Shown here piece after piece: positions 70 through 48,071 of a DNA stretch of 64,000 nt. A model generated the notes under the pieces. That model was given only the letters and a program-made list of their open reading frames with translations, ran no database searches and was not told the origin of the DNA. The translations under genes were made by a program, and so were the position numbers. Source of the stretch: a virus (lineage: Duplodnaviria; Heunggongvirae; Uroviricota; Caudoviricetes); IMG/VR virus record IMGVR_UViG_3300012667_000768. One strand, 5' to 3'. Within the stretch, counting starts at the first letter, position 1, and each line of letters starts with the position of its first letter.

Positions 70-3000
70 TTATTTAGCGTCCTTGACAGCTAGTGATACA
101 ACGTATGTGCTGCCTCCATCATATGTGAATAACGACCATACATCAACAGCATTAGCTGTTGTTGTCTGTGGCGGAGCGATACCCCCATTGAACTTAAATG
201 ATGCAGGCCATGTTACCGTACGAGTTCCAGAACCGTCTTGTTTTACTATTAAAGTTAAGGCAGCCGGGAGTTGAGTAGGATTACCACTTATTGCTAGTGT
301 TGTATTACCATTGATCATCATGTAGAGTGTGTCATAAGTAGACACGTCCCATGTCTGTGTTCCAGACACATTAACTAATGAATTTAGATTAGACTTATTA
401 GCTTTTGCATCCACTGTTGTTGTTAGTGAAGATAGTCCAGAAGCAGTTGCATAATAAGAGCCGTGCTGTCCATCAAGAAGATCGGCATCAAGTCCTGATG
501 AAGCTCCATCATTGCCTGCGTGCCATATGGTGTTACCACCGTAAGTAAGAGCTCCAGTACCTGTGCGACCTAGCTGAGTTTGGTCAGCAGTACCAAATAC
601 TATATAAGCAGCCTCTGTATTCTGAACGCCTTTAATGCATACTGTATTACTTACATTAGTATCGCCAATCCAGGCATCATCACCTATTTTAATATTTTCT
701 TGAAGACCATTATTAGTCGTAAAGATCTTAACAAATGTCGGAGAATCGCTAGTTGCTACTGCTTGTCCAATAGACACAGTAGGTGACGCGCCTTCGCTGC
801 CTGATCCCGATACTGTGACACCTGTGCCAGCAGTTATACCTTCAACATAGTTGCCTGTAGTATCTGTGCCAAGCGCTACTGAATTAGCAGCAATTGTAGC
901 TGTTAGAGTTACATCAGCCGATCCATTTAAAGATACAGAACCCGAAAGGTCGCCTCCTAGTGAGATTGTTCTGGCTGTCTGCCATGCAGAAGCTGTACTA
1001 GCATTACCTGTTAGGCTGCCCTCAATATTCGCTACAAGAGTATCTATGGCAAATGTTGCATCAGTAGTAGTAATAGTAGTACTTGGTTCAGTAGTCATAC
1101 CGCTGAATAAATACCATTTATCAGCTGACGCCTTTCTTACTATGCCGGAGTGTTGGTATAGCCCATCGTTAAAGTGTCCGACAATACCTAGATCTGCAGC
1201 ATTACCAGTATTTCCAGTACCAATATAAATTAGAGGATCGGTAATAGATAAATCAGTTGTACTTACTGTAGTAGTTGTACCACTAACAGTTAAGTTTCCG
1301 TTTACTGTGATACTATTGAAAGTAACATCATCTGTAGTACCCACAGGTTGTCCAATCGCTACAGTAGGAGACCAGCCCTCGCCAGCAGTGCCAGATACTG
1401 TAACTCCTGTTCCAGCAGTTAGACCGGCAACGTAGTTGCCTGTTGTGTCAGTACCTAAAGCTACTGAGTTAGCCGCAATAGTTGTTGTAATCGCTGCGTT
1501 TGCACTTCCATTAAAAGATACTGAGCCAGTAACATCTCCTGTTAGAGAAATAGTTCTAGCAGTCTGTAAAGTAGTTGCTGTAGTAGCATTACCACTTAAT
1601 GCAGCAGTGATAATTCCAGCACTAAAATCGCCATCGCCATCTCTAGCTACTACAGTATTACCTGTATTATTTTTGGTAGCATTGACACCAAGAGTTAGTG
1701 CCGCACCTTCTGATCCTACTCCTGATCCGCCAGTAATATAAGAGCCATTAGCAATAGTTGCTACATAGTTTCCAGTTGTATCTGTCCCAAGCGCTACTGA
1801 ATTAGCAGCTACAGTAGCCGTTAATGTAGCATTAGCTGAACCATCAATAGATACAGATCCAGTAAGATCTCCACCTAATGTGATTGTTCTAGGAGTGGTC
1901 CACTTAGCCGCTGATCCTGTTATGTTATCAGAAGCTATAATAAATCCAGCTCCATTAGCTAACTGAGAAGTATTGGTCGGTATAGTTATAGCACCGGTAG
2001 TGGAGTTATAATCGCCACTTCCAGCTGTAAAAGTTAAAGCCGATCTAGCACGAGCATCAGTGAAATAAAGATTTGTTGTACCTTCTGTAATCTCGTCGGT
2101 ATTATCTTTACCCGCTACAGCAGTGTCTACATAACTCTTAGTGGCTATTGTAGAAGTATCTACCGATACCTGTCCTGTTGCAATAGTAATACCGCTTCCT
2201 GCAGTAAAGTGTGCCCTAACTTCCGAAGCACTTGGACCTGTATATGAAAATACACCAGTTCCGCTATCATAAGCTAAGCTACCATCTCCGCCATTGTCAG
2301 TTACACTAACTGCGCCTCTTGCTCTAGTATTAGTATAGTAAAGATTAGTTGTACCTTCTGTAATTTCGTCAGTATTATCTTTCCCAGATACTGCTGTATC
2401 TACATAAGAACGTGTTGCCATTACAGCAGTATCAGCAGCTACTTGTCCATCCGTGATTGTAACGCCAGCTCCAGCAGTAAAGTGTGATCTAACTTCACTC
2501 GCACTAGGGCCTGTGTATACAAGAGCCCCTGTAAGTGTATTATAAGTTAGACTACCGTCACCACTAGCATCTGTTAGTGATATAGCATTTCTGGCTCTCG
2601 AATCTGTATAGTAAAGATTAGTTGAACCTTCTGTAATTTCATCGGTGTTATCTTTTGTAGCAAGAGCAGTAGCTATATTATCTGTTACATAAGTTTTTGT
2701 AGCTACGGTTGAATCTATACTAACAGCACCGTCTGTAATAGAAATACCAGTACTTGCTGTAAAGTGTGCTCTAACATCGGAAGCACTCGGACCTACATAA
2801 GTAATAACGCCATTTGAGTATGATAGAGATCCATCACCACCAGAGTCTGTGACGCTAATCGCATCTCTTGCTCTAGCTGTTGTAAAGTAAAGATTATTTA
2901 CACCTTCTGTGATTTCGTCAGTATTATCTTTTCCAGCAACTGCATTTGTCACAGTAGTAGTAACAAAGCTCTTTGTAGCTAGTACATCTGTATCTGCTCC

Positions 3001-3225
3001 AATCACTCCAGAGTTATAAGTAATACCTGTTGTTGCTGAAAGATCATCTAAGCTAATAAAGCTGGTGATATCAGAAGCTCTAGCTAATGGATATCCTCCA
3101 TTTAAAGATCCGTCGTGTACTACTAAAGTATCCTTTGTAGTATCTACTGTTACTTCGCCTACGGCTCCAGCAAAAGTAGTATGTTCCGCGGTTGTTCCGC
3201 GTCTAAGTTGAATTTGTTTTGACAT
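70..3225 (-). CDS. large tail fibre protein with internal tandem repeat domains
   Basis: 1051 aa; N-terminal QLRRGTTAEH...GEV motif shared with the next 3 genes; 4 copies of a ~95-aa repeat (KDNTDEITEG..NLY(F/Y)T..RAR) and 3 copies of TISLxGD..GTDTTGNYV; DNA-level repeats visible. Confidence 0.75.
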   Translation of the reverse strand: MSKQIQLRRGTTAEHTTFAGAVGEVTVDTTKDTLVVHDGSLNGGYPLARASDITSFISLDDLSATTGITYNSGVIGADTDVLATKSFVTTTVTNAVAGKDNTDEITEGVNNLYFTTARARDAISVTDSGGDGSLSYSNGVITYVGPSASDVRAHFTASTGISITDGAVSIDSTVATKTYVTDNIATALATKDNTDEITEGSTNLYYTDSRARNAISLTDASGDGSLTYNTLTGALVYTGPSASEVRSHFTAGAGVTITDGQVAADTAVMATRSYVDTAVSGKDNTDEITEGTTNLYYTNTRARGAVSVTDNGGDGSLAYDSGTGVFSYTGPSASEVRAHFTAGSGITIATGQVSVDTSTIATKSYVDTAVAGKDNTDEITEGTTNLYFTDARARSALTFTAGSGDYNSTTGAITIPTNTSQLANGAGFIIASDNITGSAAKWTTPRTITLGGDLTGSVSIDGSANATLTATVAANSVALGTDTTGNYVATIANGSYITGGSGVGSEGAALTLGVNATKNNTGNTVVARDGDGDFSAGIITAALSGNATTATTLQTARTISLTGDVTGSVSFNGSANAAITTTIAANSVALGTDTTGNYVAGLTAGTGVTVSGTAGEGWSPTVAIGQPVGTTDDVTFNSITVNGNLTVSGTTTTVSTTDLSITDPLIYIGTGNTGNAADLGIVGHFNDGLYQHSGIVRKASADKWYLFSGMTTEPSTTITTTDATFAIDTLVANIEGSLTGNASTASAWQTARTISLGGDLSGSVSLNGSADVTLTATIAANSVALGTDTTGNYVEGITAGTGVTVSGSGSEGASPTVSIGQAVATSDSPTFVKIFTTNNGLQENIKIGDDAWIGDTNVSNTVCIKGVQNTEAAYIVFGTADQTQLGRTGTGALTYGGNTIWHAGNDGASSGLDADLLDGQHGSYYATASGLSSLTTTVDAKANKSNLNSLVNVSGTQTWDVSTYDTLYMMINGNTTLAISGNPTQLPAALTLIVKQDGSGTRTVTWPASFKFNGGIAPPQTTTANAVDVWSLFTYDGGSTYVVSLAVKDAK

Positions 3226-3241
3226 TTATAAATTCCAATCG

Positions 3242-4834
3242 TCAGGCGACGCTATCTGTAATCAGACCATAGTCCGCAGAAGAAGTAACTGGTCCAGTGA
3301 TAAATCCATAGTCCATAAGATCCATGATTCTTTGTTCGAATACTAACCAAGTTGTACCAGTGTAAATAAAGCTAGCATGTGTACGTATCTGGTCTAACAG
3401 AATATCATCTGCCTCATTAAGAATAGTACTACCATTTCTACCTACTGTTACGTGATTAGTATCGAAATAAGCATAAGCATCCATAATAACTACTTCATCA
3501 CCGACGCTAGGATTAGCAGGTAATGCTACAGATACAGGATTAGATCTAGTATCTACGAATACTCCTTCGTTATTACCAGTCGCGGTATAGTTAACACTAG
3601 TGCTCGTCCATACTTTTCCGCCTAGGCTAGTAGGTAAGTTATCTAAATCATTGTAGTCATTGGAAGTAGCTACTGCAGCGAGTCCTGTTACACCTATCTC
3701 TATAGAGGCATCGCCAAGAGTAATACCTATATTGTCTCCTGCGGTTATTTCAGCATTTTCGTATACGTTTAGAGTTTCGTTGCGAATAAGTATAGATCCA
3801 GCAGTATTTGTTCCACTAATCTTTACATCATGTAACTCATTAGTTTCATACCCATTCTGAATTTTTACGTAAATAACACCTACAGTAGCATGACTACGAA
3901 TACATACACCTACATACACAGCGTGATCAGGTGCCTGAGGTATAGTAGTAGTGTAGGCTCCAGGAGTAGTTGGAGATAGCCACAGCGCAGATCCTACTGG
4001 ATATGCTGATGTGTTCAACCCTGTTAAGTACCCAGTAGTGATACAGAATGAACTAGCACCACCAGTTACAGTCTTTGCTATCACACCGAAAGTTTTGGAG
4101 GACTTACTCTCTAAATTAGCTTGAGCAGGACGTACAGTTTGGTTGGCTCCTGTCGAGCCTACTGTGTATACTACTTCACCCTTAGTTAGTCCAGCATTAT
4201 CAGCGTCCCTAACTAGAATAGCGTTAGTCTGTCCTAGTTCAATAGCTAAACCACTATCATCTAATCCTAGGGATAATCCTTGTCGGTCTGCGTTCCAGTA
4301 TAACTTTCCAGTCTCAGGAACTTCAGCTGCTGTAGTATCGAATTGAATAAAGTCAAAGTGTTCGTCTTCAGTCTGATAGTAGCTTCTCCAAGTAGAGCCG
4401 GTGTATACGTATGTAACAGCTATGCCCTTTACATGGAGTACTTCATCTTCTGATACTCCTTCTACAGTTGAACTATTTCTGCTAACTGTTAGAGGATTGT
4501 CGCTAAAGTCATTGCCATCAATAATTACAACTTGAGTACCCTCAGTAGGAGTAGGTGGTAGCGTTATAGTAAAACTACCTCCAGAAGTATCTGCAATGAT
4601 TCCGTCTTTGTCAGAAGCAGTATAACTTCCCGTTTTTACAGTAAAGTCTATACCTCCTGGTTGTTGCATACCTATCTCAACAATACTTTCAGTACCGTCA
4701 TCTTTCTTAAGGTATAACTTGCCGTCATAAGTATTGATAGCAAGTTCGCCAAGTTCTAGTTGGCTAGTCTGCGGAACCTTTGTCGGTTCCGCAGATCTTC
4801 TTAATTTCAGTAAATTAGCCATATGGCTCCCCAT
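3242..4834 (-). CDS. tail fibre / receptor-binding protein
   Basis: 530 aa; N-terminal GELAINTYDGKLYLKKDDG motif typical of phage fibre proteins; position within the fibre cluster. Confidence 0.65.
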   Translation of the reverse strand: MGSHMANLLKLRRSAEPTKVPQTSQLELGELAINTYDGKLYLKKDDGTESIVEIGMQQPGGIDFTVKTGSYTASDKDGIIADTSGGSFTITLPPTPTEGTQVVIIDGNDFSDNPLTVSRNSSTVEGVSEDEVLHVKGIAVTYVYTGSTWRSYYQTEDEHFDFIQFDTTAAEVPETGKLYWNADRQGLSLGLDDSGLAIELGQTNAILVRDADNAGLTKGEVVYTVGSTGANQTVRPAQANLESKSSKTFGVIAKTVTGGASSFCITTGYLTGLNTSAYPVGSALWLSPTTPGAYTTTIPQAPDHAVYVGVCIRSHATVGVIYVKIQNGYETNELHDVKISGTNTAGSILIRNETLNVYENAEITAGDNIGITLGDASIEIGVTGLAAVATSNDYNDLDNLPTSLGGKVWTSTSVNYTATGNNEGVFVDTRSNPVSVALPANPSVGDEVVIMDAYAYFDTNHVTVGRNGSTILNEADDILLDQIRTHASFIYTGTTWLVFEQRIMDLMDYGFITGPVTSSADYGLITDSVA

Positions 4835-4863
4835 TCACGCTTATATAAGCGGGGCTTTATATA

Positions 4864-6156
4864 TTAAAATGTTCCGCCGTCAATATCACCCCATGCAGGC
4901 ACACCGCCTACTAGTTGGAGTATTTGACCCTCTGCTTGCACAGCTAAAGCAGCTAGTGTATTAGTACCTGAAGCATAGATAATGTCGCCGGCTACATAAG
5001 ATGTTAGACCTGTACCACCTTTAGTAGTAGCAATAGTTGTAGCATTCCATGTACCAGTAGCAACTGTACCTAAGGTAACAATACTAGTCTGACCTACATA
5101 GGCAGAGTCAATATCTACGCTGTCGCCATATACTACGATTCTATTTGTAGTACCTACTACATCTAGCTGATTACCAGACTTAGTAAGACCAGCGCCAGCA
5201 ATAACTTGACCAGCACCACTGAACTGAGATACAGTAACATCAGAAACACCTAGTGTTCCACCTACGTTAACTGTGATTAAATAACCATTATCTCCATTAA
5301 GAGTACCTTGCTCTACGAAGGCGAATGCACTGATAAGTTCATTCCAAGTATTAGCATCAGCGGCTCTATCCCAAGCACTAGCAGAAACTACATATATACC
5401 ATTCTGGTGAGCAGTATCTTGATTCTTTACTAGTACTCTATCTCCAGCGATAACAGCAATGCCGTCAATTGTCTGAGTGCCTGATAGTGTAATATTTGCA
5501 GTTGTAGCTACTCTTACGCTATCCTTAGGTGAGATACCTTGAACAGCGGAGTCTACATAATTCTTTGTTGCAGCATCCTGAGCATTTACAGGGTCGGCAA
5601 GACCTGTAATATTCTGTGAGTTAAAACTTACAGATGCGTTTGGCGCAGTCATCTGATCGAGGCGATTTGTACGTACCTGCGTATCGAAATCGCTGATCTT
5701 TGAAGCCGCTAAAGTAGGAATGTCACTAGCTGATAGTGTTGTTCCTGCGGTAGCACGACCCTTAGAGTCGATAGTTACTTTTGTATAAGTACCCGCAGTA
5801 ATACCAGTGTTTGCTAGTGTAATAGCAATTGAGGTCGCGCCAGTACCTGTCGCGTCACCTGTTAGAGTAATGGTTTCATTACCTGTTAGGTATGTATTAG
5901 TATCTAGTGTCCAGGTATCTGCGCCTGTTCTTTTTAGGAATCCAGTACCTGTAAGGCTAGAAATAGCGGTAAGATCAGCATCTAGTGCTTGTACTTCATC
6001 TAGTCTAGCCATTTTGACGAAGGTATTGTTGGATGTACCAATAGCAATACGACCTTCATCTGTGATTAAGTATGGCTCAGCTTGGTTTAAGGTCTGCGCT
6101 GTTATGGCAGATGCTAACTGGCTTGCAGTACCTCTTTTAATTTTTAAAAGTGTCAT
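4864..6156 (-). CDS. tail fibre protein
   Basis: 430 aa; N-terminal IKRGT...EPYLITDEGRIAIGTS motif (conserved fibre N-terminal box); Gly/Thr-rich. Confidence 0.65.
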   Translation of the reverse strand: MTLLKIKRGTASQLASAITAQTLNQAEPYLITDEGRIAIGTSNNTFVKMARLDEVQALDADLTAISSLTGTGFLKRTGADTWTLDTNTYLTGNETITLTGDATGTGATSIAITLANTGITAGTYTKVTIDSKGRATAGTTLSASDIPTLAASKISDFDTQVRTNRLDQMTAPNASVSFNSQNITGLADPVNAQDAATKNYVDSAVQGISPKDSVRVATTANITLSGTQTIDGIAVIAGDRVLVKNQDTAHQNGIYVVSASAWDRAADANTWNELISAFAFVEQGTLNGDNGYLITVNVGGTLGVSDVTVSQFSGAGQVIAGAGLTKSGNQLDVVGTTNRIVVYGDSVDIDSAYVGQTSIVTLGTVATGTWNATTIATTKGGTGLTSYVAGDIIYASGTNTLAALAVQAEGQILQLVGGVPAWGDIDGGTF

Positions 6157-6792: not shown

Positions 6793-7158
6793 CTACGAGG
6801 CTAGGATAAAATCGCCTGTACGGTCTAGAAATTTGTAGTCTACTAGAGTAGGTTTAAACTCTTCGATAGCCGCTAAAATCGTATCAATATTGAACTCAGC
6901 ACACGAATATACATCGAGTCTCAATAGACCAGGCTCATCCTCGTCCCAAACGTGTAGAGCTATATGACTAGTCTCAATAATAGTTACGGCGGTGAGACCT
7001 CTATTACCAGGCATATCATGGTATCTAGCGTAAGGCCCATCGAGAATTTTCATCCCAATGTCTTCTACTAACTTCTTTTTCCATTGTACGATATACTCTG
7101 GATTCTTGGGTGGATCTTTTACTCTGGCATTAATAACCAGTAGGTGATGTACTAGCAT
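6793..7158 (-). CDS. speH: S-adenosylmethionine decarboxylase proenzyme (small SpeH type, pyruvoyl-dependent)
   Basis: 121 aa; IIETSHIALHVWDE matches the ESH autocleavage/pyruvoyl motif (cf. ISESHLTIHTWPE); DVYSCA resembles the DLFTCG block. Confidence 0.7.
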   Translation of the reverse strand: MLVHHLLVINARVKDPPKNPEYIVQWKKKLVEDIGMKILDGPYARYHDMPGNRGLTAVTIIETSHIALHVWDEDEPGLLRLDVYSCAEFNIDTILAAIEEFKPTLVDYKFLDRTGDFILAS

Positions 7159-7898: not shown

Positions 7899-7927
7899 AT
7901 TATACTAGCCAAAGCTAGCAAAGTCAA
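7899..7927 (-). promoter_or_regulatory. promoter TTGACT-N17-TATAAT
   Basis: perfect -35 and -10 hexamers, 17-bp spacer, upstream of 7162-7872. Confidence 0.6.
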
Positions 7928-8070: not shown

Positions 8071-8745
8071 TTATTCTCCAGGGCTTTGTGCAGCCTCTGC
8101 AACATTGGGAAAGTGTTGCTTAATGATTGTCCAACATTGTTCAGCAACAATGCGGTGTTCTTTTTGTGTTGCTTTATCCATACGTAGTTGACAGTAGTGA
8201 ATCCAACTACGTAGTGAGCCTGACATAATCATTACTGATTCTGTGCAGCCTTCAGGTAGAACTGCGCGAGCTTGTTCTTTGGCAATACCATTATCAATAG
8301 CCCACTTGTAGGCATACTCAACTTCGTTCAGTACTCGTGCTTGTCTAATATTCCAATTTTCTTCAAGTAGTTTATTATCGCCAACTTCGATTGAGTTCTG
8401 TCTGTTCTTGGCATCTTGAAGTCTGGCTTCTCGCTTAACAAATCCAAGATCTTTCGTTGGATCGGCGTAACGCTGAGAGTACTCTTGGAATGAGAAAGAA
8501 CGATGTCGCAAAATTTGGCGAGCGATATCTCGTGTGGTTTTGATTTCCATTGAGACATGGATCATCTCCAAAGGTGACCAGTGTTGATTACGAATAAGAT
8601 AACTAACTAACTTATTAGCTGTCGCTGTATTATTTTGATTTGAGGGATTAGAGACTCGTGCAGCCCATGCTACTAGTTCTTCAGCCGTAGTGCAATCAGT
8701 ATATGCGCTAGGCTTAGTAACACCAATTAGGTTTACTTCACTCAT
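8071..8745 (-). CDS. thyX: flavin-dependent thymidylate synthase ThyX
   Basis: 224 aa; ThyX signature RHRSFSFQEYSQRY (RHR-x7-S). Confidence 0.8.
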   Translation of the reverse strand: MSEVNLIGVTKPSAYTDCTTAEELVAWAARVSNPSNQNNTATANKLVSYLIRNQHWSPLEMIHVSMEIKTTRDIARQILRHRSFSFQEYSQRYADPTKDLGFVKREARLQDAKNRQNSIEVGDNKLLEENWNIRQARVLNEVEYAYKWAIDNGIAKEQARAVLPEGCTESVMIMSGSLRSWIHYCQLRMDKATQKEHRIVAEQCWTIIKQHFPNVAEAAQSPGE

Positions 8746-9644: not shown

Positions 9645-9673
9645 AATATAGCAAAACTAACAAGCGAAGTCAA
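9645..9673 (-). promoter_or_regulatory. promoter TTGACT-N17-TATATT
   Basis: upstream of 9035-9625. Confidence 0.5.
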
Positions 9674-11045: not shown

Positions 11046-11573
11046 CAGATACTTATCCTTATCTGGCGAAGTGAAGTAGGCTGTTTCTTCCTCACGAGTC
11101 AATTTTCTATGTTGGGGAATACTCTTTTTATCCTTCCAACATACATAAGTGGTCCCGTCGAAAGGTATAGTCCAGGGTTCGATACTCATCTTATCTCCTT
11201 ATTGAAATGGCCCGTTCTGTTTCTAGGTGGAACCATACCCAATGTCTTAGTGCTTACGCAGCAAGAGCAAATGCAACGTCGTTATCGTTTGCAGTTATGT
11301 TTTGTGGCACTTTGCCAGTCAATAGTCTCGGCGTTCCTATTACTCGAAAATCGATCCTAGTTCGCCCCCATCATAGATACACTGGTGTGCTACTACGCTA
11401 AAGGATTGACCGTTACCCGATGGGAACTCGAACATTGTCCAACGGCAGTAATCCACTCCTTAGACGATGGCTGCTTCTAGGCCCACGTCCCAATGTATCT
11501 ATGGTGGAGGCGGCGGGTGCTGCCCCCGCGTCTTTCCGCTTTTATTGTCGGCTGTCAGCGACTATAGTCATCA

Positions 11574-11602
11574 GATATAACAAAAGTTACTCTGAAAGTC
11601 AA
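11574..11602 (-). promoter_or_regulatory. promoter TTGACT-N17-TATATC
   Basis: fires into the 480-bp non-coding stretch 11100-11570. Confidence 0.4.
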
Positions 11603-11605
11603 GAA

Positions 11606-12280
11606 TTATTTCTTTATTGCTATGAAATTTGCTTGGTAGTGTCTAGGCGTCATAATATTTAGTCTATTTCTAGCTTCGATTAAGTTTTCACTGAGCAGTA
11701 GATCGTAGTCCTCTGCTAGTAGAAATGACGCGTTCTTGCCCATACTATACGCTTCTATAAGAAGTTTTATATAGCTATACTTTATTCCCTTATGTAAAAG
11801 AGCTATTATTGATATTAATAACCACCCAGGAGCTTTTGTCTGAGTATAAGAGAACATGGCTAAGCACATTTCGCCAATATAAGAGGTATCGTATCCAGTA
11901 AGAGTATGCCATACGTCATGAACATCAGAATATCTTCTAGCAAGCCAGCTATAAGGATGCCTGGCTTCTATCCATTCTTTTTTGCCTTTGCGATTTAATA
12001 CTGGTAAGTAATCTTCTATATTTGGATACTGAAGGTAAGTTTCCTTTCCTACAGAACCCTCTGGCCTAGAAGATAGGTTTCTGAAATAGGTAGATACTTC
12101 TTCCGAATTGTATACTACCTCTCCGCCCTTTTTACTAGATATTAGCTTATTAAGCATACTCTTCAAAGAGTAACGATTAGTGACATATATAAGATATACA
12201 CTAAACTTAGGGTTCTCTGGATTTTTATAAAGCTTTTTACTTATTTTATACGCCGATTTAAGATCTAGTTTTGGCAGCAT
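11606..12280 (-). CDS. hypothetical protein with COQ4-like HDxxH-x11-E metal-binding motif
   Basis: 224 aa; VHDVWHTLTGYDTSYIGE matches the HDxxH-(x)11-E pattern of the COQ4 family. Confidence 0.45.
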   Translation of the reverse strand: MLPKLDLKSAYKISKKLYKNPENPKFSVYLIYVTNRYSLKSMLNKLISSKKGGEVVYNSEEVSTYFRNLSSRPEGSVGKETYLQYPNIEDYLPVLNRKGKKEWIEARHPYSWLARRYSDVHDVWHTLTGYDTSYIGEMCLAMFSYTQTKAPGWLLISIIALLHKGIKYSYIKLLIEAYSMGKNASFLLAEDYDLLLSENLIEARNRLNIMTPRHYQANFIAIKK

Positions 12281-12848
12281 ATATAGTCTCCACTATCTCT
12301 ACAGCATCATTAGACTTTAGTAATGAGTGTATAGTTCTTTTTATTATGCGACTGTGTTTATGTTCATCTAAGAAATTAGTTCTTGTGCCAGATATATTAA
12401 AGTAATCTTCGTACCATATTATGGGTTTATCATTTACTTCTAGATAAGTAAGCAATCCATAGATACTTTGATATGCTAAATGCAAATACTGTATTATACC
12501 CTCGGCAGTCAAATAAGGCATAGCTTTTATGAAGAAATTGGCTACGCTAAATAAGTTATCTTCTAGACTTTTCCGTAATACGACTACATCACTAGAGTGT
12601 ACTAGTAAATGAGGGGCCTGATTACATAAAACAATATACTTATCTCTATCTGTAAGATAGGATACGAATTGAGCCTTCGTCATGTCAGGCTGGAATAACG
12701 TTTCGTGATGAGCAGCTTTTCTATTTTCTGCACCATAATCACCTATATACATCGGAGTTAGTTCTCCGACAAAAGTTAGTCCAGTACTCTGTTCTAGATC
12801 TAAACAATACTTTGTTGCCCCACATCTAGGTGGAGCACATACTAGCAT
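12258..12848 (-). CDS. hypothetical protein (degenerate P-loop-like N-terminus)
   Basis: 196 aa; CAPPRCGATKY near the N-terminus; translationally coupled to its neighbours. Confidence 0.5.
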   Translation of the reverse strand: MLVCAPPRCGATKYCLDLEQSTGLTFVGELTPMYIGDYGAENRKAAHHETLFQPDMTKAQFVSYLTDRDKYIVLCNQAPHLLVHSSDVVVLRKSLEDNLFSVANFFIKAMPYLTAEGIIQYLHLAYQSIYGLLTYLEVNDKPIIWYEDYFNISGTRTNFLDEHKHSRIIKRTIHSLLKSNDAVEIVETIYAAKTRS

Positions 12849-13058: not shown

Positions 13059-13087
13059 AATATACATAAAGACACCTCAAAAGTCAA
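13059..13087 (-). promoter_or_regulatory. promoter TTGACT-N17-TATATT
   Basis: divergent partner of the plus promoter 13143-13171. Confidence 0.55.
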
Positions 13088-13142: not shown

Positions 13143-13171
13143 TTGACTTTTGGTCTGGACTACACTATATT
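13143..13171 (+). promoter_or_regulatory. promoter TTGACT-N17-TATATT (plus-strand dut/S21/hydrolase operon)
   Basis: the only plus-strand consensus promoter in the 1-29 kb region. Confidence 0.55.
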
Positions 13172-13305: not shown

Positions 13306-13518
13306 TTGGGTAAGAAAGTAAAGCGTAAGAAGTATAGTTCCAAGGGCGAACGTCCAAACGTATCTAATGCGAATTCGTTCAATCTATGGTCATTACTTGA
13401 TCGCGCACTATTTAAAGCCAAAGCTCGTGCGGCTGGTAAGCGGGTTTGTGAAACTATTCCAAATCCCGACAAGTCCAAGACCAATGCACGATTTATTAGG
13501 GTATGCAAGAATGGATAA
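13306..13518 (+). CDS. small highly basic protein (TTG start)
   Basis: 70 aa, Lys/Arg-rich; AAAGGA Shine-Dalgarno; first gene after plus promoter 13143-13171; preferred over the antisense ORF 13218-13538. Confidence 0.45.
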   Translation: MGKKVKRKKYSSKGERPNVSNANSFNLWSLLDRALFKAKARAAGKRVCETIPNPDKSKTNARFIRVCKNG

Positions 13519-13699
13519 TATAATTGAGTTTCCCGCAAATCGAACAGAAAGTAAGGGTGATCCAGTTATTGAATTCGTTCTTAATCAATTAATCCCTTGG
13601 GCAATGGAACAGGGATTAGATGTGCAGTCACCCCAATTTCGGCTCAATGGAGCAACTATAATGACTTGCCTACAAGGAATGTTATTGAATGACATTTGA
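13511..13699 (+). CDS. hypothetical protein
   Basis: start MDNIIEF overlaps the upstream stop (ATGGATAA); stop overlaps the dut start. Confidence 0.45.
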   Translation: MDNIIEFPANRTESKGDPVIEFVLNQLIPWAMEQGLDVQSPQFRLNGATIMTCLQGMLLNDI

Positions 13700-14099
13700 A
13701 AAACTACATGAGGATGCTATTATTCCTCATTACCAAACAATCGGATCAGTCGGTCTAGATTTACACAGTATTGAAGCAACCAGCATTGAAGCAGGTAAGC
13801 GCGGTATCGTAGGCACTGGCCTACGTATTCACTTACCACAAGGCATCGAGGGTCAAATTCGTCCTCGGTCTGGCTTGGCAGCAAAGTATGGTATTACCGT
13901 TCTCAATTCCCCTGGCACTATTGATACTGATTATGAAGGAGAACTTAGAGTTATTCTTTATAATACAGGAGATAGTACTTTTAGTATTGAGAAGGGCGAT
14001 AGAATCGCTCAGTTAGTATTGGCTCCCGTGGCTATTGATAGGGATCTTCAGCTAACAAATGTACGTGCAGATCAGGGTTTTGGATCAACAGGTCTATGA
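13689..14099 (+). CDS. dut: dUTP diphosphatase
   Basis: 136 aa; dUTPase motifs RPRSGLAAKYG, GTIDTDYEGEL, GDRIAQLV, QGFGSTG. Confidence 0.85.
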   Translation: MTFEKLHEDAIIPHYQTIGSVGLDLHSIEATSIEAGKRGIVGTGLRIHLPQGIEGQIRPRSGLAAKYGITVLNSPGTIDTDYEGELRVILYNTGDSTFSIEKGDRIAQLVLAPVAIDRDLQLTNVRADQGFGSTGL

Positions 14100-14278
14100 A
14101 AGTCGAAGTAAGAAATAATAATGTTGACCGTGCGATGCAGATTCTAAAGAGAAAGCTCATCGACGAAGGCGTCTTCAGAGAGTTACAAGAACGTCGTTTT
14201 TATGAAAAACCTAGCGATAAAAAGCGTAGGTTGAAGAGAGCGGCAATAGCCAGGGAGAGACGTAGGGAGCGCGGATAA
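14096..14278 (+). CDS. rpsU: ribosomal protein bS21 homolog
   Basis: 60 aa; RRFYEKPSDKKRR matches the conserved bS21 core (E. coli REFYEKPTTERKR); basic C-terminus. Confidence 0.7.
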   Translation: MKVEVRNNNVDRAMQILKRKLIDEGVFRELQERRFYEKPSDKKRRLKRAAIARERRRERG

Positions 14279-14294
14279 ACCGTGAAACTTACGA

Positions 14295-14630
14295 ATGGAT
14301 TGTGTAGCTGATACAGTATATTATGAAGCCAGAGGCGAAGGCACAGAAGGAATGAGGGCAGTAGCCCACGTTATTCTAAACAGAGCCGAAGAAGAGGGCG
14401 TAAGCCCGTGCATTATTGTTAGAAGAAAAGCCCAGTTTGCTACTGGCCCTTCAAGGCCAAAAGACAAGTTGTGGCAAATTGCCAAAAAGATTTCTATAAA
14501 TCCTGGCAAGGACCTAACAAGAGGCGCTACTTATTTTCATAATCGTAGTGTCAGACCATACTGGATAAAACGCCTAGTGGTATCTTTTACCTATGGCGGC
14601 CATATCTTTTATAGAAAGATTATCAAGTAA
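14295..14630 (+). CDS. cell-wall hydrolase, SleB/CwlJ family (Hydrolase_2 domain)
   Basis: 111 aa; VYYEARGEG..AVAHVILNR...QFA pattern of the SleB-type hydrolase domain. Confidence 0.65.
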   Translation: MDCVADTVYYEARGEGTEGMRAVAHVILNRAEEEGVSPCIIVRRKAQFATGPSRPKDKLWQIAKKISINPGKDLTRGATYFHNRSVRPYWIKRLVVSFTYGGHIFYRKIIK

Positions 14631-14637
14631 AAAGAGA

Positions 14638-14670
14638 CCCGTCAGGCGAAAGCTTGGCGGGTTTTTTTAT
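14638..14670 (+). terminator. intrinsic terminator
   Basis: 10-bp stem ACCCGTCAGG/CTTGGCGGGT followed by T7. Confidence 0.65.
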
Positions 14671-14727
14671 GCACGCACGTAACTTTTGAACTCAAAAAAG
14701 TTGTGTACGGCGCATACCTAAAAATAA

Positions 14728-14760
14728 AGCCCGCTTCCATTGCTGGAGGCGGGCTTTTTG
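14728..14760 (-). terminator. bidirectional intrinsic terminator
   Basis: GCCCGCTTCCA-ttgc-TGGAGGCGGGC, A-run before and T-run after. Confidence 0.6.
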
Positions 14761-15561
14761 TTAGACTTCTAAAATTTGATTCATCTTAAAGAACTTGTTC
14801 TCATTACGATATCCACGAGGATTGCAAACAACTCTAGTATCGTTAATCTTATAGTCGAAGCAGTCGTGCATATGTCCATGTGTCCATAGCTTGATTTGTG
14901 GTCGATCAATAATAAAACCATCTAGCATAGAATAGTAGCCATAGTTCATTTGAGTATCATTGTGATACTTATGATGAACACTCATAAATGATGGAGCATG
15001 ATGGCTCATGATAACGACGTTATCTAAGCCTGCGCTAGCTTCATCAAAGTATTTCAGCGTTCTACGATGAAATGCTGCTGCGTCCGAAGGGCGGAACCTT
15101 CCACCATAGCTATCATGCTTCCACTTAACAATTCGGAAGTCATTCATACCACTCATTAGGTACTGTTCAGTAATTGGATTGTTATGATTCATATCAGTCC
15201 AAAGAGTAGCACCTATAAAGGTGACGCCATTCTTTTCCCATGACTGGTTATTCATGAAATGGATGTTTGGAAACACTGAAAGAGTTTCACGAATAATATC
15301 ATCAGTAGTATCAATATACCCACGGTAGTATTCGTGATTTCCAGGAATGTAAAGCACGTCTTCATACTCATTAGAGCAGAACTGGAAAAACTTAAGAAAG
15401 TCCTGTGCCTTTATATGGTAAGGACTTTCTGGACCCTTGTTAAAAAGAGCCCCCATACAAATATCACCATTGAGCATTAGAATATCTGCTTTTTCCTCGT
15501 TCTTAGGGAAAAAGTCAGCATCGAACTCAAGGTGAAGGTCACTCATCTGTTTAATACGCAT
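14761..15561 (-). CDS. calcineurin-like metallophosphoesterase
   Basis: 266 aa; motifs SDLHLE (DxH), GDI, GNHE, GHMH. Confidence 0.75.
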   Translation of the reverse strand: MRIKQMSDLHLEFDADFFPKNEEKADILMLNGDICMGALFNKGPESPYHIKAQDFLKFFQFCSNEYEDVLYIPGNHEYYRGYIDTTDDIIRETLSVFPNIHFMNNQSWEKNGVTFIGATLWTDMNHNNPITEQYLMSGMNDFRIVKWKHDSYGGRFRPSDAAAFHRRTLKYFDEASAGLDNVVIMSHHAPSFMSVHHKYHNDTQMNYGYYSMLDGFIIDRPQIKLWTHGHMHDCFDYKINDTRVVCNPRGYRNENKFFKMNQILEV

Positions 15562-15584: not shown

Positions 15585-15614
15585 ATTATAGCGCCTCAAG
15601 GGAGACAAGTCAAG
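15585..15614 (-). promoter_or_regulatory. promoter TTGACT-N18-TATAAT
   Basis: upstream of the phosphoesterase gene. Confidence 0.55.
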
Positions 15615-15901: not shown

Positions 15902-16699
15902 TTACTTGACGTTTACGATACCCTTAAAGTCGTAAGGGATAACAATGGTATTTACCTTGCCATCACGAACGGCTTCTGCAATGGTAACGATCGCGGTAGC
16001 TTCCATATAACGGGTAGCTCCAGCATTAGCGTTAAGAGCAGCAATACGCTGAGCTTCTAGCTTAGCAGTACCAACTTCTACTTCCTTACGCTTGTTCTCG
16101 TTCTGTGCCTGAACTAGCAGGTTGGCTGACTGAACGATATTAGCAGCAGGCTTTACCTGACGTACTAAAACCTGCGAAACGTCGATCTGCCCGTCTAGCT
16201 TTTCAGCAACTAGGCTTGCAACGATTTCCTGACGGATAAGCTGTTCCATTTCAGCACGATTATCTGCCATCTTTAGTGACTCGTAACGACGAGCAACCTT
16301 GTAAGCAGCATTGCGACCTAGCTGACGAATGTAGTTATACATAAGTAGAGTATCGCCTTCTTCGGTATCCGCATGGAAACCACGGTTCTTCTCAATATAG
16401 AGTTCTGCAACAGAACCTGGATTAATTGAGTAGATTACTGCCATATCAAAATCAGCTACTGTTGAGTTATCAGAAGCTAGAGGAGTCATGTCAGCAATAT
16501 CGACCTGAACGTCCTTAGTAGGGAAAGTTAGAACATCACCAAAGATAGTCTGATTAACAGTACCTGGAAGAAGTTCACTAGTTTCAATGGTCTTGTCGAA
16601 TGAACGACGAACACCTACTTCACCTGTTTCGATACGAGTACAAGCTGATGCAGTAGCCATAAGAGCAACGAGTACACCAACCTTAGCAATACGATTCAT
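15902..16699 (-). CDS. SPFH/band-7 (prohibitin-like) lipoprotein
   Basis: 265 aa; lipobox LMATASAC; SPFH-like core with a long coiled-coil, Ala-rich C-terminus. Confidence 0.6.
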   Translation of the reverse strand: MNRIAKVGVLVALMATASACTRIETGEVGVRRSFDKTIETSELLPGTVNQTIFGDVLTFPTKDVQVDIADMTPLASDNSTVADFDMAVIYSINPGSVAELYIEKNRGFHADTEEGDTLLMYNYIRQLGRNAAYKVARRYESLKMADNRAEMEQLIRQEIVASLVAEKLDGQIDVSQVLVRQVKPAANIVQSANLLVQAQNENKRKEVEVGTAKLEAQRIAALNANAGATRYMEATAIVTIAEAVRDGKVNTIVIPYDFKGIVNVK

Positions 16700-17334: not shown

Positions 17335-17514
17335 TCATTTCATACTCCTCAAAAACATGGCATCTAGATATCCATCTATCCAATCGGAATCAGCTCCAGA
17401 GCCTCTATCGTAAGGACTAGTGTTCATAGCGAGACCATCCATACAAGCCTTAGCGCCTTGATAGTAAGCGTGAGACTGCTGCTTTTTCTCTATTTCTTTT
17501 TTAAAACTAACCAT
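17335..17514 (-). CDS. small protein with ribosome-modulation-factor (RMF)-like pattern
   Basis: 59 aa, not in the track; HAYYQGAKA...SPYDRGSGADSDWIDGYLDAM parallels RMF RGYQAGIAG...CPY...SQWLGGWREAM; weak, pattern-level only. Confidence 0.3.
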   Translation of the reverse strand: MVSFKKEIEKKQQSHAYYQGAKACMDGLAMNTSPYDRGSGADSDWIDGYLDAMFLRSMK

Positions 17515-17860
17515 CAGTCCACTCCACTTGACTTATACCAGCTTCTTTAATTGCTGACTGACAAACAGGACAAGGCTTGGCATTGCCATACTCACCTTTT
17601 CTAGTAACACGGGTTACTAGGATGCGATAAGCACGACTCAAATCACGACAACGAATAATAGCATCCATTTCAGCATGGAGAAAGATCTTCTCTGGCAAGC
17701 CCACCTTATGAGCGTGTCTAGCCTGCTTTGGATGCGTTTTTACGTATGAGTTCTTGCCAAGACTAAGAACTCGTCCTTTCTTGTCATAAATAACAGCCGT
17801 GATATGCTGAGTCTGTCGCCTACTCATATTAGTCCCATAAACTACGATAATACTTTCCAA
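17507..17860 (-). CDS. cytidine/deoxycytidylate deaminase family protein
   Basis: 117 aa; zinc-binding HAEMDAI and PCPVCQ motifs. Confidence 0.7.
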   Translation of the reverse strand: MESIIVVYGTNMSRRQTQHITAVIYDKKGRVLSLGKNSYVKTHPKQARHAHKVGLPEKIFLHAEMDAIIRCRDLSRAYRILVTRVTRKGEYGNAKPCPVCQSAIKEAGISQVEWTDG

Positions 17861-20932: not shown

Positions 20933-21399
20933 TCAAATGCTATTAAAAGACACTAGTAAAGTGATAAAGGTCCAAAAAACCACGATCGCTTCTATAAATT
21001 CGGCCTTGAATGTATACTAATGTCATTTAATAGCACTCCTAAGAATGCTACGAGAAGGATGAGATTACTCCTTCTATCGGAAGTCTTTGGTCATTACCCA
21101 ATCCCTTGCGAGGATGGTTCTACCTTTATCCACCAGAACGTCTCACGACTGTTCTAGTAACTTCCAGTGCTGCTTTATTATAGTGATAGCTTTTTCACTG
21201 TCATACCATGCTACTCACTCATTATTAACCCGTCTACCTTGCGAGCAGTTCAGTTCCGCTAAGAACTTACGTTTTCACTTCGAGCGAACAAATCCAGCTT
21301 GCGACCTTCATTGCACCATCTTCTATTACTAGGATGGTATTAAGCACCTTTCACATGGCACCGAAGCGGACTTTGCGTTTTCTATATATCGTTCCATGA

Positions 21400-21472
21400 T
21401 ATACGTTATAGGATTTGAACCTATGACTCTCTAATTAATGGTTAGATGCTCTACCAACTGAGCTAAACGTAA
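21400..21472 (-). tRNA. tRNA-like gene with non-canonical anticodon loop (CCAUUAA)
   Basis: reverse complement TTACGTTTAGCTCAGTTGGTAGAGCATCTAACCATTAATTAGAGAGTCATAGGTTCAAATCCTATAACGTATA; good D- and T-arms; 1-72 mismatch; position 33 is C. Confidence 0.5.
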
Positions 21473-21933
21473 AGTTGCTAACCTACCTCGAAGTGCCACT
21501 TCCGCTGCTTCATATCCTTTTGAGATACAAAATACAACACTCCGACTGTCTTTCTCCTTGCGAGATACTAAACCATGCTTCTGGACTTTCACCCATTGCA
21601 TTGCCACTTAGCCCTTCCACGCGAATGGTCGAACACAGTGACTACCAGTTAATTGTACGCACCTCATGTTTTGGCTTGTTATGGAACAGGACGCCAATCC
21701 CTTTATCCCTCACCGACCGGCTCTGGGCATATATCCTTTCGGACCATAACAACAATCCATGCGATGATTGCCTAGCTAAATAGACAATGACACGCTTTCG
21801 GCTATAAACCGAGTCGTATCCAACGCTGGCTTGCATAGTAGGACTCTTGCGAGCGGAGGTATGTAGGAATTCCTCCGTTGGCCACATTGCTGTGGTTATC
21901 CTTTATAGAGCGCTATGCCGCTCTTGAATATCT

Positions 21934-26511: not shown

Positions 26512-26770
26512 CTAATTTAGTCCACATATGAGAGTTGCGAGGAATGTTAGGAATAATAGTATAGTTATCCCCATCTTTAAATACTAGCCTATCATGTACG
26601 CCAGGCTTGAATGCACTAGCTGGAGCCTGCTCGCCATAATACCTAAAGATAAGATCTGATGGCTGTGGAGAGTTAGCCAGTAGAGTTTCTACTAGTTCTG
26701 CGTTGAAAGAGCGACGAGGCTTATGCTCTCCGCTCTTATTTGTCCACTCAGGAATAGTGATTCTGTACAC
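26504..26770 (-). CDS. hypothetical protein
   Basis: 88-aa ORF. Confidence 0.5.
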   Translation of the reverse strand: MYRITIPEWTNKSGEHKPRRSFNAELVETLLANSPQPSDLIFRYYGEQAPASAFKPGVHDRLVFKDGDNYTIIPNIPRNSHMWTKLDA

Positions 26771-27215
26771 GTTCTTTAATCTCCAAATAAAACTGATGAT
26801 ACTTGGCGATACGCTGAATATCCTTATCAGTTACGCCCTTTAGACGACGAATATCAGAGTTGTGACGAAGATCACACAGCTTGACTCGCATTGCATCTTC
26901 ATTCGCAAACACTTGACGCTTATATTCGTCATAGGTCTGACCACGCTGCTTCGTAAGCGAGTATATACCTGTAATTACTCTTTCACTAAAGCCAAGTTCT
27001 TTTAGCTGGTGATAAGTTACGTCTGTGTCTTCTACTAGGTCGTGACCTAGCGCAATGCACATCAGTTCTTCGTCGTCGCTTTTTAGATAGTGCATGACTT
27101 TAAGGCAGTGCATGATATAAGGCTTTCCAGCCTTATCCGTCTGCCCATCATGAGCATTGGTTGCTAGATGCAACATTTTGCTTAACATCATCAATTTCCT
27201 TTCTAATAGCTTCAT
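26748..27215 (-). CDS. HD-domain (p)ppGpp hydrolase-like protein (small alarmone hydrolase)
   Basis: AHDGQTDKAGKPYIMHCLKV...GHDLVEDT matches the RelA/SpoT-type HD hydrolase motifs; true start may be an internal Met. Confidence 0.6.
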   Translation of the reverse strand: MKLLERKLMMLSKMLHLATNAHDGQTDKAGKPYIMHCLKVMHYLKSDDEELMCIALGHDLVEDTDVTYHQLKELGFSERVITGIYSLTKQRGQTYDEYKRQVFANEDAMRVKLCDLRHNSDIRRLKGVTDKDIQRIAKYHQFYLEIKERVQNHYS

Positions 27216-28942: not shown

Positions 28943-29497
28943 TTAAACTGACTTTAAGAATGGTACTAGCCAATGCTTGTGTTTACCCCAAAAGCGTCTA
29001 GCCTTCAAGCCCTCTAGCTGAGCCATGTCTCTGCCTTCTGCTGATAGAAACCACTCTTTAGTATTGTAGGAACATCCAAACTGAACGTGACCATCATCAT
29101 AGACGGTGATTGGGTAATCTAGACCATCTAGTTGCACTGGTGGACGATTTATAATTCCTTTAGCCCACTCTACTTGCTGAATGTTTGCATCTTTAAGGTC
29201 AACATTAGAAAGCATACTGTCCTTAAAAGATGTGTGAATAAGCTGCGACTTAGCAAAGCTAGAGCAGAATACATATGCGTTTCTAATAGACGTTTGAATG
29301 AACGAACACTCAATAAACTGAGCACCACATAGGTAGCCCTGATCCATTAAAGCAGCATCAAAGTTGCATCTAGTAAAGATTGCACCTAGATACTCGGCTT
29401 TCTCTAGTGATGCCGACGTGAAGTCACAATCTGTGTACTCTGCGTGAGTGAAGTCAAAGCGATGAAGATCGCGACCATAGAATGATTCATTTTTCAT
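28943..29497 (-). CDS. pentapeptide-repeat protein
   Basis: tandem A(D/N)LxX-type pentapeptide repeats; start MKNESFYG lies 6 nt after a TATAAT box. Confidence 0.6.
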   Translation of the reverse strand: MKNESFYGRDLHRFDFTHAEYTDCDFTSASLEKAEYLGAIFTRCNFDAALMDQGYLCGAQFIECSFIQTSIRNAYVFCSSFAKSQLIHTSFKDSMLSNVDLKDANIQQVEWAKGIINRPPVQLDGLDYPITVYDDGHVQFGCSYNTKEWFLSAEGRDMAQLEGLKARRFWGKHKHWLVPFLKSV

Positions 29498-29503
29498 AAG
29501 CCC

Positions 29504-29532
29504 ATTATATATAAAAACTAACCTATTGTCAA
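29504..29532 (-). promoter_or_regulatory. promoter TTGACA-N17-TATAAT, leaderless (ATG 6 nt after -10)
   Basis: minus strand reads cTTGACAataggttagtttttataTATAATgggcttATG. Confidence 0.55.
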
Positions 29533-29564
29533 GCTTTAAAACAGGACTCCCTCGCAAATAAAAC

Positions 29565-35144: not shown

Positions 35145-35175
35145 TAAAAAAAGAGGCTTTCGCCTCTTTTCTTTA
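35145..35175. terminator. bidirectional intrinsic terminator
   Basis: AGAGGC-tttc-GCCTCT with A7 before and T-run after. Confidence 0.6.
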
Positions 35176-35646
35176 GGCCGCAAGCCTTTCGTTTATCTTG
35201 GTTGCGTCATAGCATTTTATGCCGATTGAAACCATTGCATCAATAACCTTTAGGTTATCGTCAAACATGATTGCCTTAGCATCGGCAGCGCAATTGAAAC
35301 CTTCACCAATGAAATAGGTTTCAAGCAAACGAATCTTAAGGCTTGCATCGGATTCCATATTGCCCATTTCACGATGCAGCAAAGCGTCATAGGGAAGGCG
35401 ATTAACAGCAAGAAAAATCTTATCGGCTGGCTGGACTGCCCGCGCTGTGCAAACAATAACCTTATGCCCGATTGAAACCATAGCGCGCATTGACTCGGCT
35501 AAAGGCAAAAGCGAATCGGACATAATCTTTTCTGCGGTATTGTTAGCGAACCAATGGTCAAGGTCAAGCGAGCCATCGGCTTTAGTCGCTTGGCGATGCG
35601 TCGAATCAATCACAGTGCCATCTAGGTCAAAAATAATGTAAGCCAT
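35173..35646 (-). CDS. HAD-superfamily hydrolase/phosphatase
   Basis: motif I FDLDGTVIDS, motif II VCTAR, motif IV MFDDN. Confidence 0.7.
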   Translation of the reverse strand: MAYIIFDLDGTVIDSTHRQATKADGSLDLDHWFANNTAEKIMSDSLLPLAESMRAMVSIGHKVIVCTARAVQPADKIFLAVNRLPYDALLHREMGNMESDASLKIRLLETYFIGEGFNCAADAKAIMFDDNLKVIDAMVSIGIKCYDATKINERLAA

Positions 35647-40189: not shown

Positions 40190-40434
40190 TGTTGAGCTTA
40201 TGTATCGCACTAGGACTAATACTCGCATCAGGTATCCTGATAGGAGTGGTAGTAGCCTGTAAAAAATTTGGTGATCTAAATAAAGATGGTAAAGTAGATA
40301 TTGATGATGCTAAGATTGTAGCAGATATTAATAAGGATGGTAAGGTAGATCAGGCAGACTTAGATATTGCTAAGAATGCTATGAAAGAAGCAGCTAAGCA
40401 AGTAACAGCTGTACTAGGTGAGAAAAAGAAATGA
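40189..40434 (+). CDS. holin-like membrane protein (1 TM)
   Basis: 81 aa; one TM helix and a KDGKVD repeat tail; overlaps the endolysin start. Confidence 0.45.
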   Translation: MLSLCIALGLILASGILIGVVVACKKFGDLNKDGKVDIDDAKIVADINKDGKVDQADLDIAKNAMKEAAKQVTAVLGEKKK

Positions 40435-47626: not shown

Positions 47627-47655
47627 TTGACTTTCGATCCTCAAACTAATATAAT
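47627..47655 (+). promoter_or_regulatory. promoter TTGACT-N17-TATAAT upstream of the HNH gene
   Basis: perfect hexamers. Confidence 0.55.
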
Positions 47656-47678: not shown

Positions 47679-48071
47679 ATGTCTGGAACAGCATTATTGC
47701 GCGACCCTATCAAATATGTTAGGGACCGAGCAAAGGCCAGATACAAAAAAGGATCTCATTGTGAAATTTGTGAGACCACAGATAACCTTGACTTTCACCA
47801 CTATTATACGATGACTCCATTGTTTAATAAGTGGTGCAAGATTAAGGGATATACAGTAAAAATTGTTGACGATATCTTAAACATTAGAGATGAATTTATC
47901 AAAGAAGAAGAGGATAAAGTCTACAACAAAACAGTAACTCTGTGCCACGAACATCATATGAAGCTCCACAGTGTATATGGAAAAGACCCAGCTCTGACTA
48001 CCGCTGAAAAGCAGATGAATTGGGTACGGATTCAAAGGGAGAAGTATGAAGCTAGGAAGTTGGCTAGTTGA
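47679..48071 (+). CDS. HNH endonuclease
   Basis: CEICETTDNLDFHHYY...TLCHEHHMKLH; Shine-Dalgarno AAAGGAGAAAAA; own promoter; between the terminase and portal genes. Confidence 0.7.
   Translation: MSGTALLRDPIKYVRDRAKARYKKGSHCEICETTDNLDFHHYYTMTPLFNKWCKIKGYTVKIVDDILNIRDEFIKEEEDKVYNKTVTLCHEHHMKLHSVYGKDPALTTAEKQMNWVRIQREKYEARKLAS

Follow-up and report, generated by a model that had tools for sequence, protein, structure and literature searches.

A phage bS21 ribosomal protein gene in a conserved operon of a T5-like lineage with a linked tmRNA

Introduction

What would a phage gain from carrying its own copy of a protein of the bacterial ribosome? The question is raised by a small gene at positions 14096-14278 (+) of IMG/VR record IMGVR_UViG_3300012667_000768, a viral sequence of which a 64,000-nucleotide stretch (the window) was analysed, and in which an initial annotation had recognised ribosomal protein bS21 (the gene and its product are called S21 below). 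bS21 joins the 30S subunit late in assembly, binds loosely and can be exchanged; it sits on the platform, close to the 3' end of 16S rRNA, and is required to bind natural mRNAs via the interaction between Shine-Dalgarno (SD) and anti-SD sequences (PMC6375957). It is also the commonest virus-encoded ribosomal protein reported, accounting for 88% of the ribosomal proteins detected in uncultivated viruses and found on 1,310 viral genomes or contigs, 90% of them aquatic and nearly all apparently lytic (PMC6375957). The gene context of 900 published bS21 phages has been profiled (PMC9723584), and bS21 has been noted together with transfer-messenger RNAs (tmRNAs) in huge phages (PMC7162821). Among virus-encoded bS21 proteins, only that of Pelagibacter phage HTVC008M has been put to an experimental test (Mizuno et al. 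2019, PMC6375957), and what a viral bS21 does during infection has yet to be demonstrated in any natural host. The window adds a new lineage and a new context to this already documented phenomenon; specific to the locus are a T5-like backbone, a dUTPase and a SleB-like hydrolase as partners of S21, and a tight, conserved linkage to a tmRNA gene.

Results

The S21 gene runs from ATG to TAA and encodes a 60-amino-acid (aa) protein, MKVEVRNNNVDRAMQILKRKLIDEGVFRELQERRFYEKPSDKKRRLKRAAIARERRRERG, with 21 lysine or arginine residues against 10 aspartate or glutamate residues (net charge +11); coordinates and length are exactly those of the initial annotation. The core quoted there, RRFYEKPSDKKRR (residues 33-45), holds at residues 35-40 the motif FYEKPS, which is invariant across 30 homologues, and the size, basicity and (F/Y)-x-K-P-(S/T) core of the protein fit a family of about 55-75 aa. 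The product matches Pfam PF01165 (Ribosomal_S21; gathering score 27) with 63.4 bits and an E-value of 1.6e-17 over model positions 1-54 of 55, so that the hidden Markov model search proposed with the annotation returned a clear S21 match rather than none. The NCBIfam equivalog model TIGR00030 (S21p; cutoff 28.95) gives 56.5 bits over positions 1-58 of 58, and PHROG 21469, 'ribosomal protein S21', matches with an E-value of 6.6e-15; full-length matches of this kind, far above chance, bear out the proposed identity. In a phmmer search of all PDB chains, 37/37 matches are bacterial, plastid or mitochondrial bS21 or bS21m, headed by E. coli bS21 (E 4.6e-6), and BLASTP against E. coli RpsU finds 38% identity over 48 aa, the FYEKP core included. 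The AlphaFold2 model built from the 30 homologues (mean predicted local distance difference test score 81.7) has three helices, at residues 10-24, 26-34 and 39-59, and Foldseek matched it to seven PDB chains, each a bacterial or mitochondrial bS21, with a top probability of 0.99; the accompanying statistics are weak (E 0.017, template-modelling score about 0.5, root-mean-square deviation about 5 A) because a helical protein of 60 residues is so short. Judged by sequence, the gene encodes a well-conserved phage bS21 that is probably functional.

The viral context of S21 is bona fide, the window being that of a phage. The large terminase (TerL, 45642-46928), portal protein (48046-49227), a 928-aa protease/major capsid protein (49494-52280, +; phrog_80 and phrog_617), tail-fibre proteins (70-6156, -) and a 395-aa endolysin (40431-41618), all found by PHROG scan, lie in the same window and thereby argue for a viral origin of S21. 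A DNA search with the 12-17 kb segment against 50,697 phage records gave no near-identical match, so the window does not belong to an isolate already sequenced. TerL shares 47-49% identity with the terminases of T5-like siphoviruses such as Vibrio phage vB_VpS_PG07 and Pectobacterium phage My1, and the best cultured matches of the SleB-like hydrolase, at about 40% aa identity, are the 'cell wall hydrolase' proteins of T5-like Demerecviridae; in one of these, Salmonella phage oselot, the hydrolase gene stands beside an SPFH/band-7 lipoprotein gene and a tRNA gene, in a neighbourhood like that in the window. By terminase and early-region layout, the window, from a T5-related virus of aquatic bacteria, comes closest to the T5-like Demerecviridae; the T5-like backbone is suggested by TerL and hydrolase identity together with synteny, and such identities over 64 kb are too little for a formal family placement. 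S21 lies at 14.1 kb, TerL at 45.6 kb (31 kb from S21) and the protease/major capsid gene at 49.5 kb, and S21 is surrounded by tRNA genes and by genes of nucleotide metabolism (dUTPase, deaminase, ThyX and metallophosphatase), in what would correspond to the early region of T5-like phages.

Relatives of S21 were found at 64 viral loci in IMG/VR, 15 of which (L001-L015) carry the whole gene cassette. S21 is the fourth of five genes in a small plus-strand island within a mostly minus-strand region. The predicted operon begins with a sigma-70-type promoter (TTGACT-17 nt-TATATT, 13143..13171, +) that scores 10/12, followed by a gene for a very basic 70-aa protein of no known family with a TTG start (13306..13518, +), a gene for a 62-aa protein with no assigned function that is also called in relatives (13511..13699, +), the dUTPase gene dut (136 aa, 13689..14099, +; PF00692 106 bits, TIGR00576 155 bits), S21, and the gene for the SleB-like cell-wall hydrolase (Hydrolase_2, 111 aa, 14295..14630, +; PF07486 56.9 bits, phrog_938). 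It ends in a strong predicted intrinsic terminator (14631..14668, +) whose hairpin, identified by RNA folding, is followed by U7 read from the sequence; the fold has -26.2 kcal/mol (z -5.8), and 0/200 shuffles fold as well. The dUTPase stop codon TGA overlaps the S21 start codon (ATGA) in the window and in 15/15 relatives, and 16 nt separate S21 from the hydrolase gene. S21 has no canonical SD motif, just a weak AGGT at -6 to -3, and this weak signal together with the ATGA overlap makes translational coupling to dUTPase likely. The initial annotation had S21 co-transcribed with dUTPase and a lysin. The ATGA overlap, the 16-nt gap, the promoter, the terminator and the conservation of the cassette in 15 contigs support co-transcription as far as anatomy can; dUTPase and hydrolase do flank S21, but two further small genes upstream (13306-13518 and 13511-13699) had been missed. 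The 'lysin' is indeed a cell-wall hydrolase, but a small SleB-like one of the type found in the early region of T5-like phages, and the endolysin is encoded separately (40431-41618).

The two upstream genes, which together replace a mechanically called 110-aa open reading frame (ORF) at 13367-13699, are defined by gene calls and conservation. The 70-aa gene is called in near-identical contigs and aligns over its full length at 57-73% identity across L001-L015, and its TTG start and an AAGGA SD motif 7 nt upstream of it are kept in relatives. The 62-aa gene is the C-terminal part of the 110-aa frame, in which the C-terminal 60 aa are 48-74% identical among relatives and the N-terminal 50 aa are weakly or not conserved. 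Pfam and PHROG searches gave no match for either product, nor for several neighbours of the operon. A terminator-like site within dUTPase (13994-14010) was set aside as a chance match, the scan having returned 2 sites where 1.7 are expected. Downstream, a GC-rich hairpin with T-runs on both strands (14726-14760; -28.0 and -23.9 kcal/mol, depending on orientation) lies where the S21 operon meets the convergent metallophosphatase gene, and is predicted to act as a terminator in both directions.

The operon promoter is one of a family. With at most one mismatch, TTGACT-N17-TATATT occurs at 14 sites in the window against 0.83 expected, all on the strand of the local genes, which suggests that, in its non-structural and structural regions alike, the phage depends on host RNA polymerase. 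The repeated motif has the consensus-like form TTGACT-N17-TATA(A/T)T, and sites elsewhere include 7899-7927 (-), 9645-9673 (-), 15585-15613 (-), 47627-47655 (+) and 55919-55947 (+). T5 promoters are strong sigma-70 promoters; strong promoters of this type are common to T5-like phages and the window, and contigs related to it reach about 100-106 kb. Across 11 relatives the -35 element of the S21 operon, CTTGACTTT, is invariant, and the -10 element is kept in 9/11 (degenerate in L004 and L011); the leader from the promoter to the first gene differs in length. A second promoter of identical form (TTGACT-17 nt-TATATT, 13059..13087, -) points the other way and would serve the minus-strand genes that lead to the tmRNA gene. 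Its -35 element, seen as the reverse complement AAGTCAAG, is visible in the aligned flank of four relatives, L002, L007, L014 and L015.

S21 is under purifying selection. Protein identity across L001-L015 is 77-97% for S21, 66-77% for dUTPase, 52-81% for the hydrolase and 41-54% for the upstream frame. The ratio of nonsynonymous to synonymous substitutions (dN/dS, Nei-Gojobori method, NG86) between the S21 genes of the window and its close relatives is 0.04-0.11 (dN 0.02-0.05, dS 0.18-0.65), and the 48 unsaturated pairs have a median of 0.087, dS being saturated in distant pairs. This is the lowest value in the operon: dUTPase stands at about 0.16, the hydrolase at 0.15 and the 110-aa upstream frame at 0.42. 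Residues 1-53 of S21 are nearly invariant across the 30 homologues; the C-terminal tail is where sequence and length vary, and the proteins range from 60 to 65 aa. In a search of 5.8 billion database proteins 192 relatives turned up, the longest of their contigs measuring 106 kb. At least 21 contigs encode a 60-aa protein identical to S21, and the six places listed come from six different samples. By these measures S21 is a stable part of this widespread phage lineage and is maintained by selection.

Beyond the minus-strand genes that face the S21 operon lies a predicted two-piece (permuted) alpha-type tmRNA (11163..11606, -) with the tag ANDNDVAFALAA. It lies outside the operon, was found by both ARAGORN and Rfam, and scores 108 bits with alpha_tmRNA (gathering score 50) and 93.2 bits with tmRNA_permuted. 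A tmRNA gene adjoins the S21 cassette in 11/12 relatives scanned (L001, L003-L007, L009, L011 and L013-L015), and the tags of the lineage (ANDNDVAFALAA, ANDNDVAFAVAA, ANDNVAFALAA and ANDNNAYEGLALAA) are conserved. In the more distant S21 loci (L016-L064) no tmRNA lies within the flanks, and in many of them a tRNA gene, often Arg(tct), stands just upstream of S21. Erythrobacter and Sinorhizobium phages have tmRNA-like regions that share short segments with the window tmRNA. The alpha type was rejected as a guide to the host, as the OM43 phage Melnitz, whose host is not an alphaproteobacterium, has an alpha-type tmRNA as well. A promoter-like motif at 11574-11602 (-) was weighed as a possible promoter of the tmRNA alone but is left unassigned, since it and the predicted 5' end of that gene overlap. 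Between the tmRNA and a 56-aa gene, a Coq4-like gene (PF05019, 62.5 bits) and a 196-aa gene (11606-12848, -) are found in the window and its closest relatives; both are absent from the more distant L001-L015, in which tmRNA directly follows the 56-aa gene.

Four tRNA genes and a GOLLD RNA lie at 20.6-21.5 kb, about 6.5-7 kb from S21. The GOLLD RNA (RF02032, 21056-21545, -) is full-length and scores 201.7 bits (E 1.9e-55); another is found in the relative L013 (11373-11818, -; 210.8 bits). A tRNA-like element is embedded in the variable 5' region of GOLLD, at the edge of the tRNA cluster (21398-21473, -). ARAGORN labels it tRNA-Asn with anticodon ATT, and because its anticodon loop, CCAUUAA, has C rather than U at position 33, it may be non-canonical or mis-assigned. 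In L066, a contig near-identical to the window phage, the place of the window's tRNA-Gly(tcc) is taken by a tRNA with anticodon CTA (17361-17435, -) that ARAGORN labels 'tRNA-Pyl' and that resembles an amber suppressor. No riboswitch reached the Rfam threshold in the scan of the window.

Ordinary SD motifs precede the genes of this phage: SD-like motifs stand upstream of 56/98 window ORFs, against 21.2 +/- 3.9 at control positions, and motifs of at least 5 nt upstream of 28 ORFs, against 6.9 +/- 2.4. From this enrichment it appears that the phage, and presumably its host, use SD-dependent initiation.

Discussion

On balance we think it probable that the locus supplies a functional phage bS21 from a T5-like early operon, and that this protein replaces or supplements host bS21 in the 30S subunit. 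Host RNA polymerase would transcribe the S21 operon from its consensus-like sigma-70 promoter to the intrinsic terminator, and the phage protein would enter host 30S subunits during infection and replace or top up the host copy. Initiation on SD-led phage mRNAs could thereby be kept going once host gene expression has been shut off, with the phage tmRNA (ribosome rescue) and tRNAs acting alongside. Ribosome incorporation, early timing and a benefit to the phage are the parts of this account that we infer; for incorporation into 30S subunits, the precedent at hand is the pelagiphage bS21, which enters E. coli 70S ribosomes (PMC6375957).

Several points weigh against this account. E. coli ribosomes with the pelagiphage protein are about 5% active in vitro (PMC6375957), so incorporation need not mean support of translation, and because such ribosomes are nearly inactive, selective re-programming and inhibition both keep some probability. 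The bS21 genes of Bacteroidetes phages lie among late structural genes and are expressed late (PMC9723584). What points to an early role for S21 in the window is T5-like synteny and promoter type, and the same promoter motif is present in the structural region, so it does not discriminate timing. A Pfam scan of 30 window ORFs turned up neither SmpB nor an initiation factor.

How far known systems resemble the window bears on these points. Only 15 of 50,697 cultured records match the S21 query (pelagiphages, Salicola phage SCTP-2 and PA5oct-like Pseudomonas phages), and no T5-like phage is among them; the initial annotation's remark that phage S21 copies remain rare thus holds for cultured isolates only, given the 1,310 uncultivated viral genomes or contigs that carry one. 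The best cultured match is HTVC008M, with 53.7% identity over aa 1-41. Like the window phage, it has a full-length bS21 in an aquatic phage of lytic type, purifying selection and a presumed replacement of host bS21; unlike the window phage with its T5-like terminase and early region, it is a T4-like Kyanoviridae myovirus of 147 kb, and its bS21 neighbours are CobS and Hsp20 rather than dUTPase and a SleB-like hydrolase. Two further phages, OM43 phage Melnitz and Pelagibacter phage Mosig, have rpsU alongside tRNAs and a two-piece tmRNA of the alpha type, as here (bioRxiv 10.1101/2021.08.24.457595). They are marine T4-like myophages in which rpsU lies just downstream of tRNA-Arg(tct), as in many L016-L064 loci, and in which the tmRNA has a glutamine riboswitch, whereas the tmRNA in the window is a divergent neighbour of the dUTPase-S21 operon. 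Cultured T5-like relatives infect Gammaproteobacteria, and unlike them the window lineage carries an alpha-type tmRNA and GOLLD.

The bS21 phages of Bacteroidetes in freshwater lakes are, like the window phage, uncultivated and known from metagenomes, with a conserved bS21 context and a proposed ribosome substitution (Chen et al. 2022, PMC9723584). Their gene for bS21 sits on the reverse strand inside the block of TerL, major capsid, protease and portal genes, 2-6 genes from those for the major capsid protein and protease, and is expressed late (PMC9723584), whereas S21 in the window lies outside the structural block. Their proteins keep an aromatic residue at the position of F. johnsoniae Tyr54, which blocks the anti-SD sequence (PMC9723584); S21 has no aromatic residue after Tyr36 (EKPSDKKRRLKRAAIARERRRERG), and so none at or near the Tyr54 equivalent, and its phmmer alignment to chain 7jil_z stops at query residue 51. 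The use of SD motifs also sets the window phage apart from these phages. E. coli bS21 (RpsU) belongs to the same family and has the same basic three-helix architecture, with 71 aa against 60 in the phage protein, which is without roughly the last 11 residues of the C-terminal tail.

Replacement could serve an end other than upkeep. If phage bS21 is swapped for host bS21 so as to bias 30S initiation towards phage leaders, a mechanism proposed for viral bS21 (PMC6375957, PMC7162821, PMC9723584), then highly conserved N-terminal and core residues beside a C-terminal tail that differs between sub-lineages would make sense, as this tail points to the mRNA and anti-SD region of the ribosome. The S21 family here is just 38% identical to E. 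coli bS21, and among the matches listed in a scan of bacterial genomes there is no close copy, the 41% over 34 aa in Treponema parvum being uninformative. The ordinary SD motifs of the phage genes speak against a bias of this kind, as does the lack in S21 of an N-terminal extension such as has been noted in huge-phage S21. Such specialisation, compatible with the replacement proposed above and not exclusive of it, seems to us possible but doubtful. The opposite effect, in which the phage protein fills the bS21 site and lowers ribosome activity early in infection to shut off the host, would agree with the strong host-type promoter in front of S21 and its place in an early-type region, and with the roughly 5% of wild-type activity left to E. 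coli ribosomes by the pelagiphage protein (PMC6375957). That low activity may, however, reflect an incompatibility between a pelagiphage protein and an E. coli ribosome. The phage itself needs the same ribosomes for its SD-led genes, and the tmRNA and tRNAs that it carries point to support of translation, all of which makes host shut-off unlikely.

A role away from the ribosome is more improbable still. With a net charge of +11 S21 is extremely basic, its gene is linked to that of the tmRNA here, and GOLLD lies about 7 kb away, so the protein could have been re-used as an RNA-binding factor or chaperone for these RNAs or for phage mRNAs. Its conservation tracks the bS21 profile along the whole length, FYEKPS core included, the linkage is lineage-specific in that distant viral S21 loci have no tmRNA nearby, and the experimental precedent is ribosome incorporation; we therefore give such moonlighting very little credence. 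Ribosomal genes in viral contigs can be cellular contamination, and for that reason a bacterial rpsU brought in by chimeric assembly, or captured recently and decaying neutrally, was considered as well. Nothing was found in its favour. S21 stands between phage genes in a cassette kept in 15 independent IMG/VR contigs and several other assemblies, the window has no bacterial rpsU-dnaG-rpoD context around it, and dN/dS is well below 1 at dS 0.18-0.65 in close pairs; this explanation is effectively refuted.

To the replacement or supplementation of host bS21 that we favour, a more speculative extension may be added, which we regard as improbable enough to state with reserve: S21 and the tmRNA could be transcribed divergently from one conserved pair of host-type promoters and, with the tRNAs and GOLLD, form a coordinated early module for ribosome upkeep and rescue. 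If so, stalled ribosomes would be rescued from degraded host mRNAs by tmRNA, and phage bS21 would make the freed 30S subunits fit for phage messages again, an early role unlike the late one proposed for the Bacteroidetes bS21 phages. In either case the lineage offers a compact, bounded and conserved operon with host-type signals and a linked tmRNA, on a T5-like backbone with well-understood genetics and timing classes. Given a host, it would be a tractable system in which to test whether viral bS21 sustains, redirects or inhibits translation.

Additional features of the window

The genes on the far side of the S21 operon encode the metallophosphatase (14761-15561), a Band_7 (SPFH) protein (15902-16699) and the deaminase (17507-17860), and ThyX is encoded at 8071-8745. 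Minus-strand genes encode an S-adenosylmethionine decarboxylase-like protein (6793-7158), a pentapeptide-repeat protein (28943-29557), a PNKP-phosphatase-like protein (35173-35646) and an HD_4 domain protein (26748-27215), the last of which barely reaches the Pfam cutoff (27.9 bits against 27.2). At the end of the structural block, a 2076-aa ORF (57646-63876, +) is possibly a tape-measure or tail protein. The 928-aa ORF at 49494-52280 is an apparent protease-capsid fusion, unlike the arrangement in phage T5, which encodes its protease and capsid protein separately.

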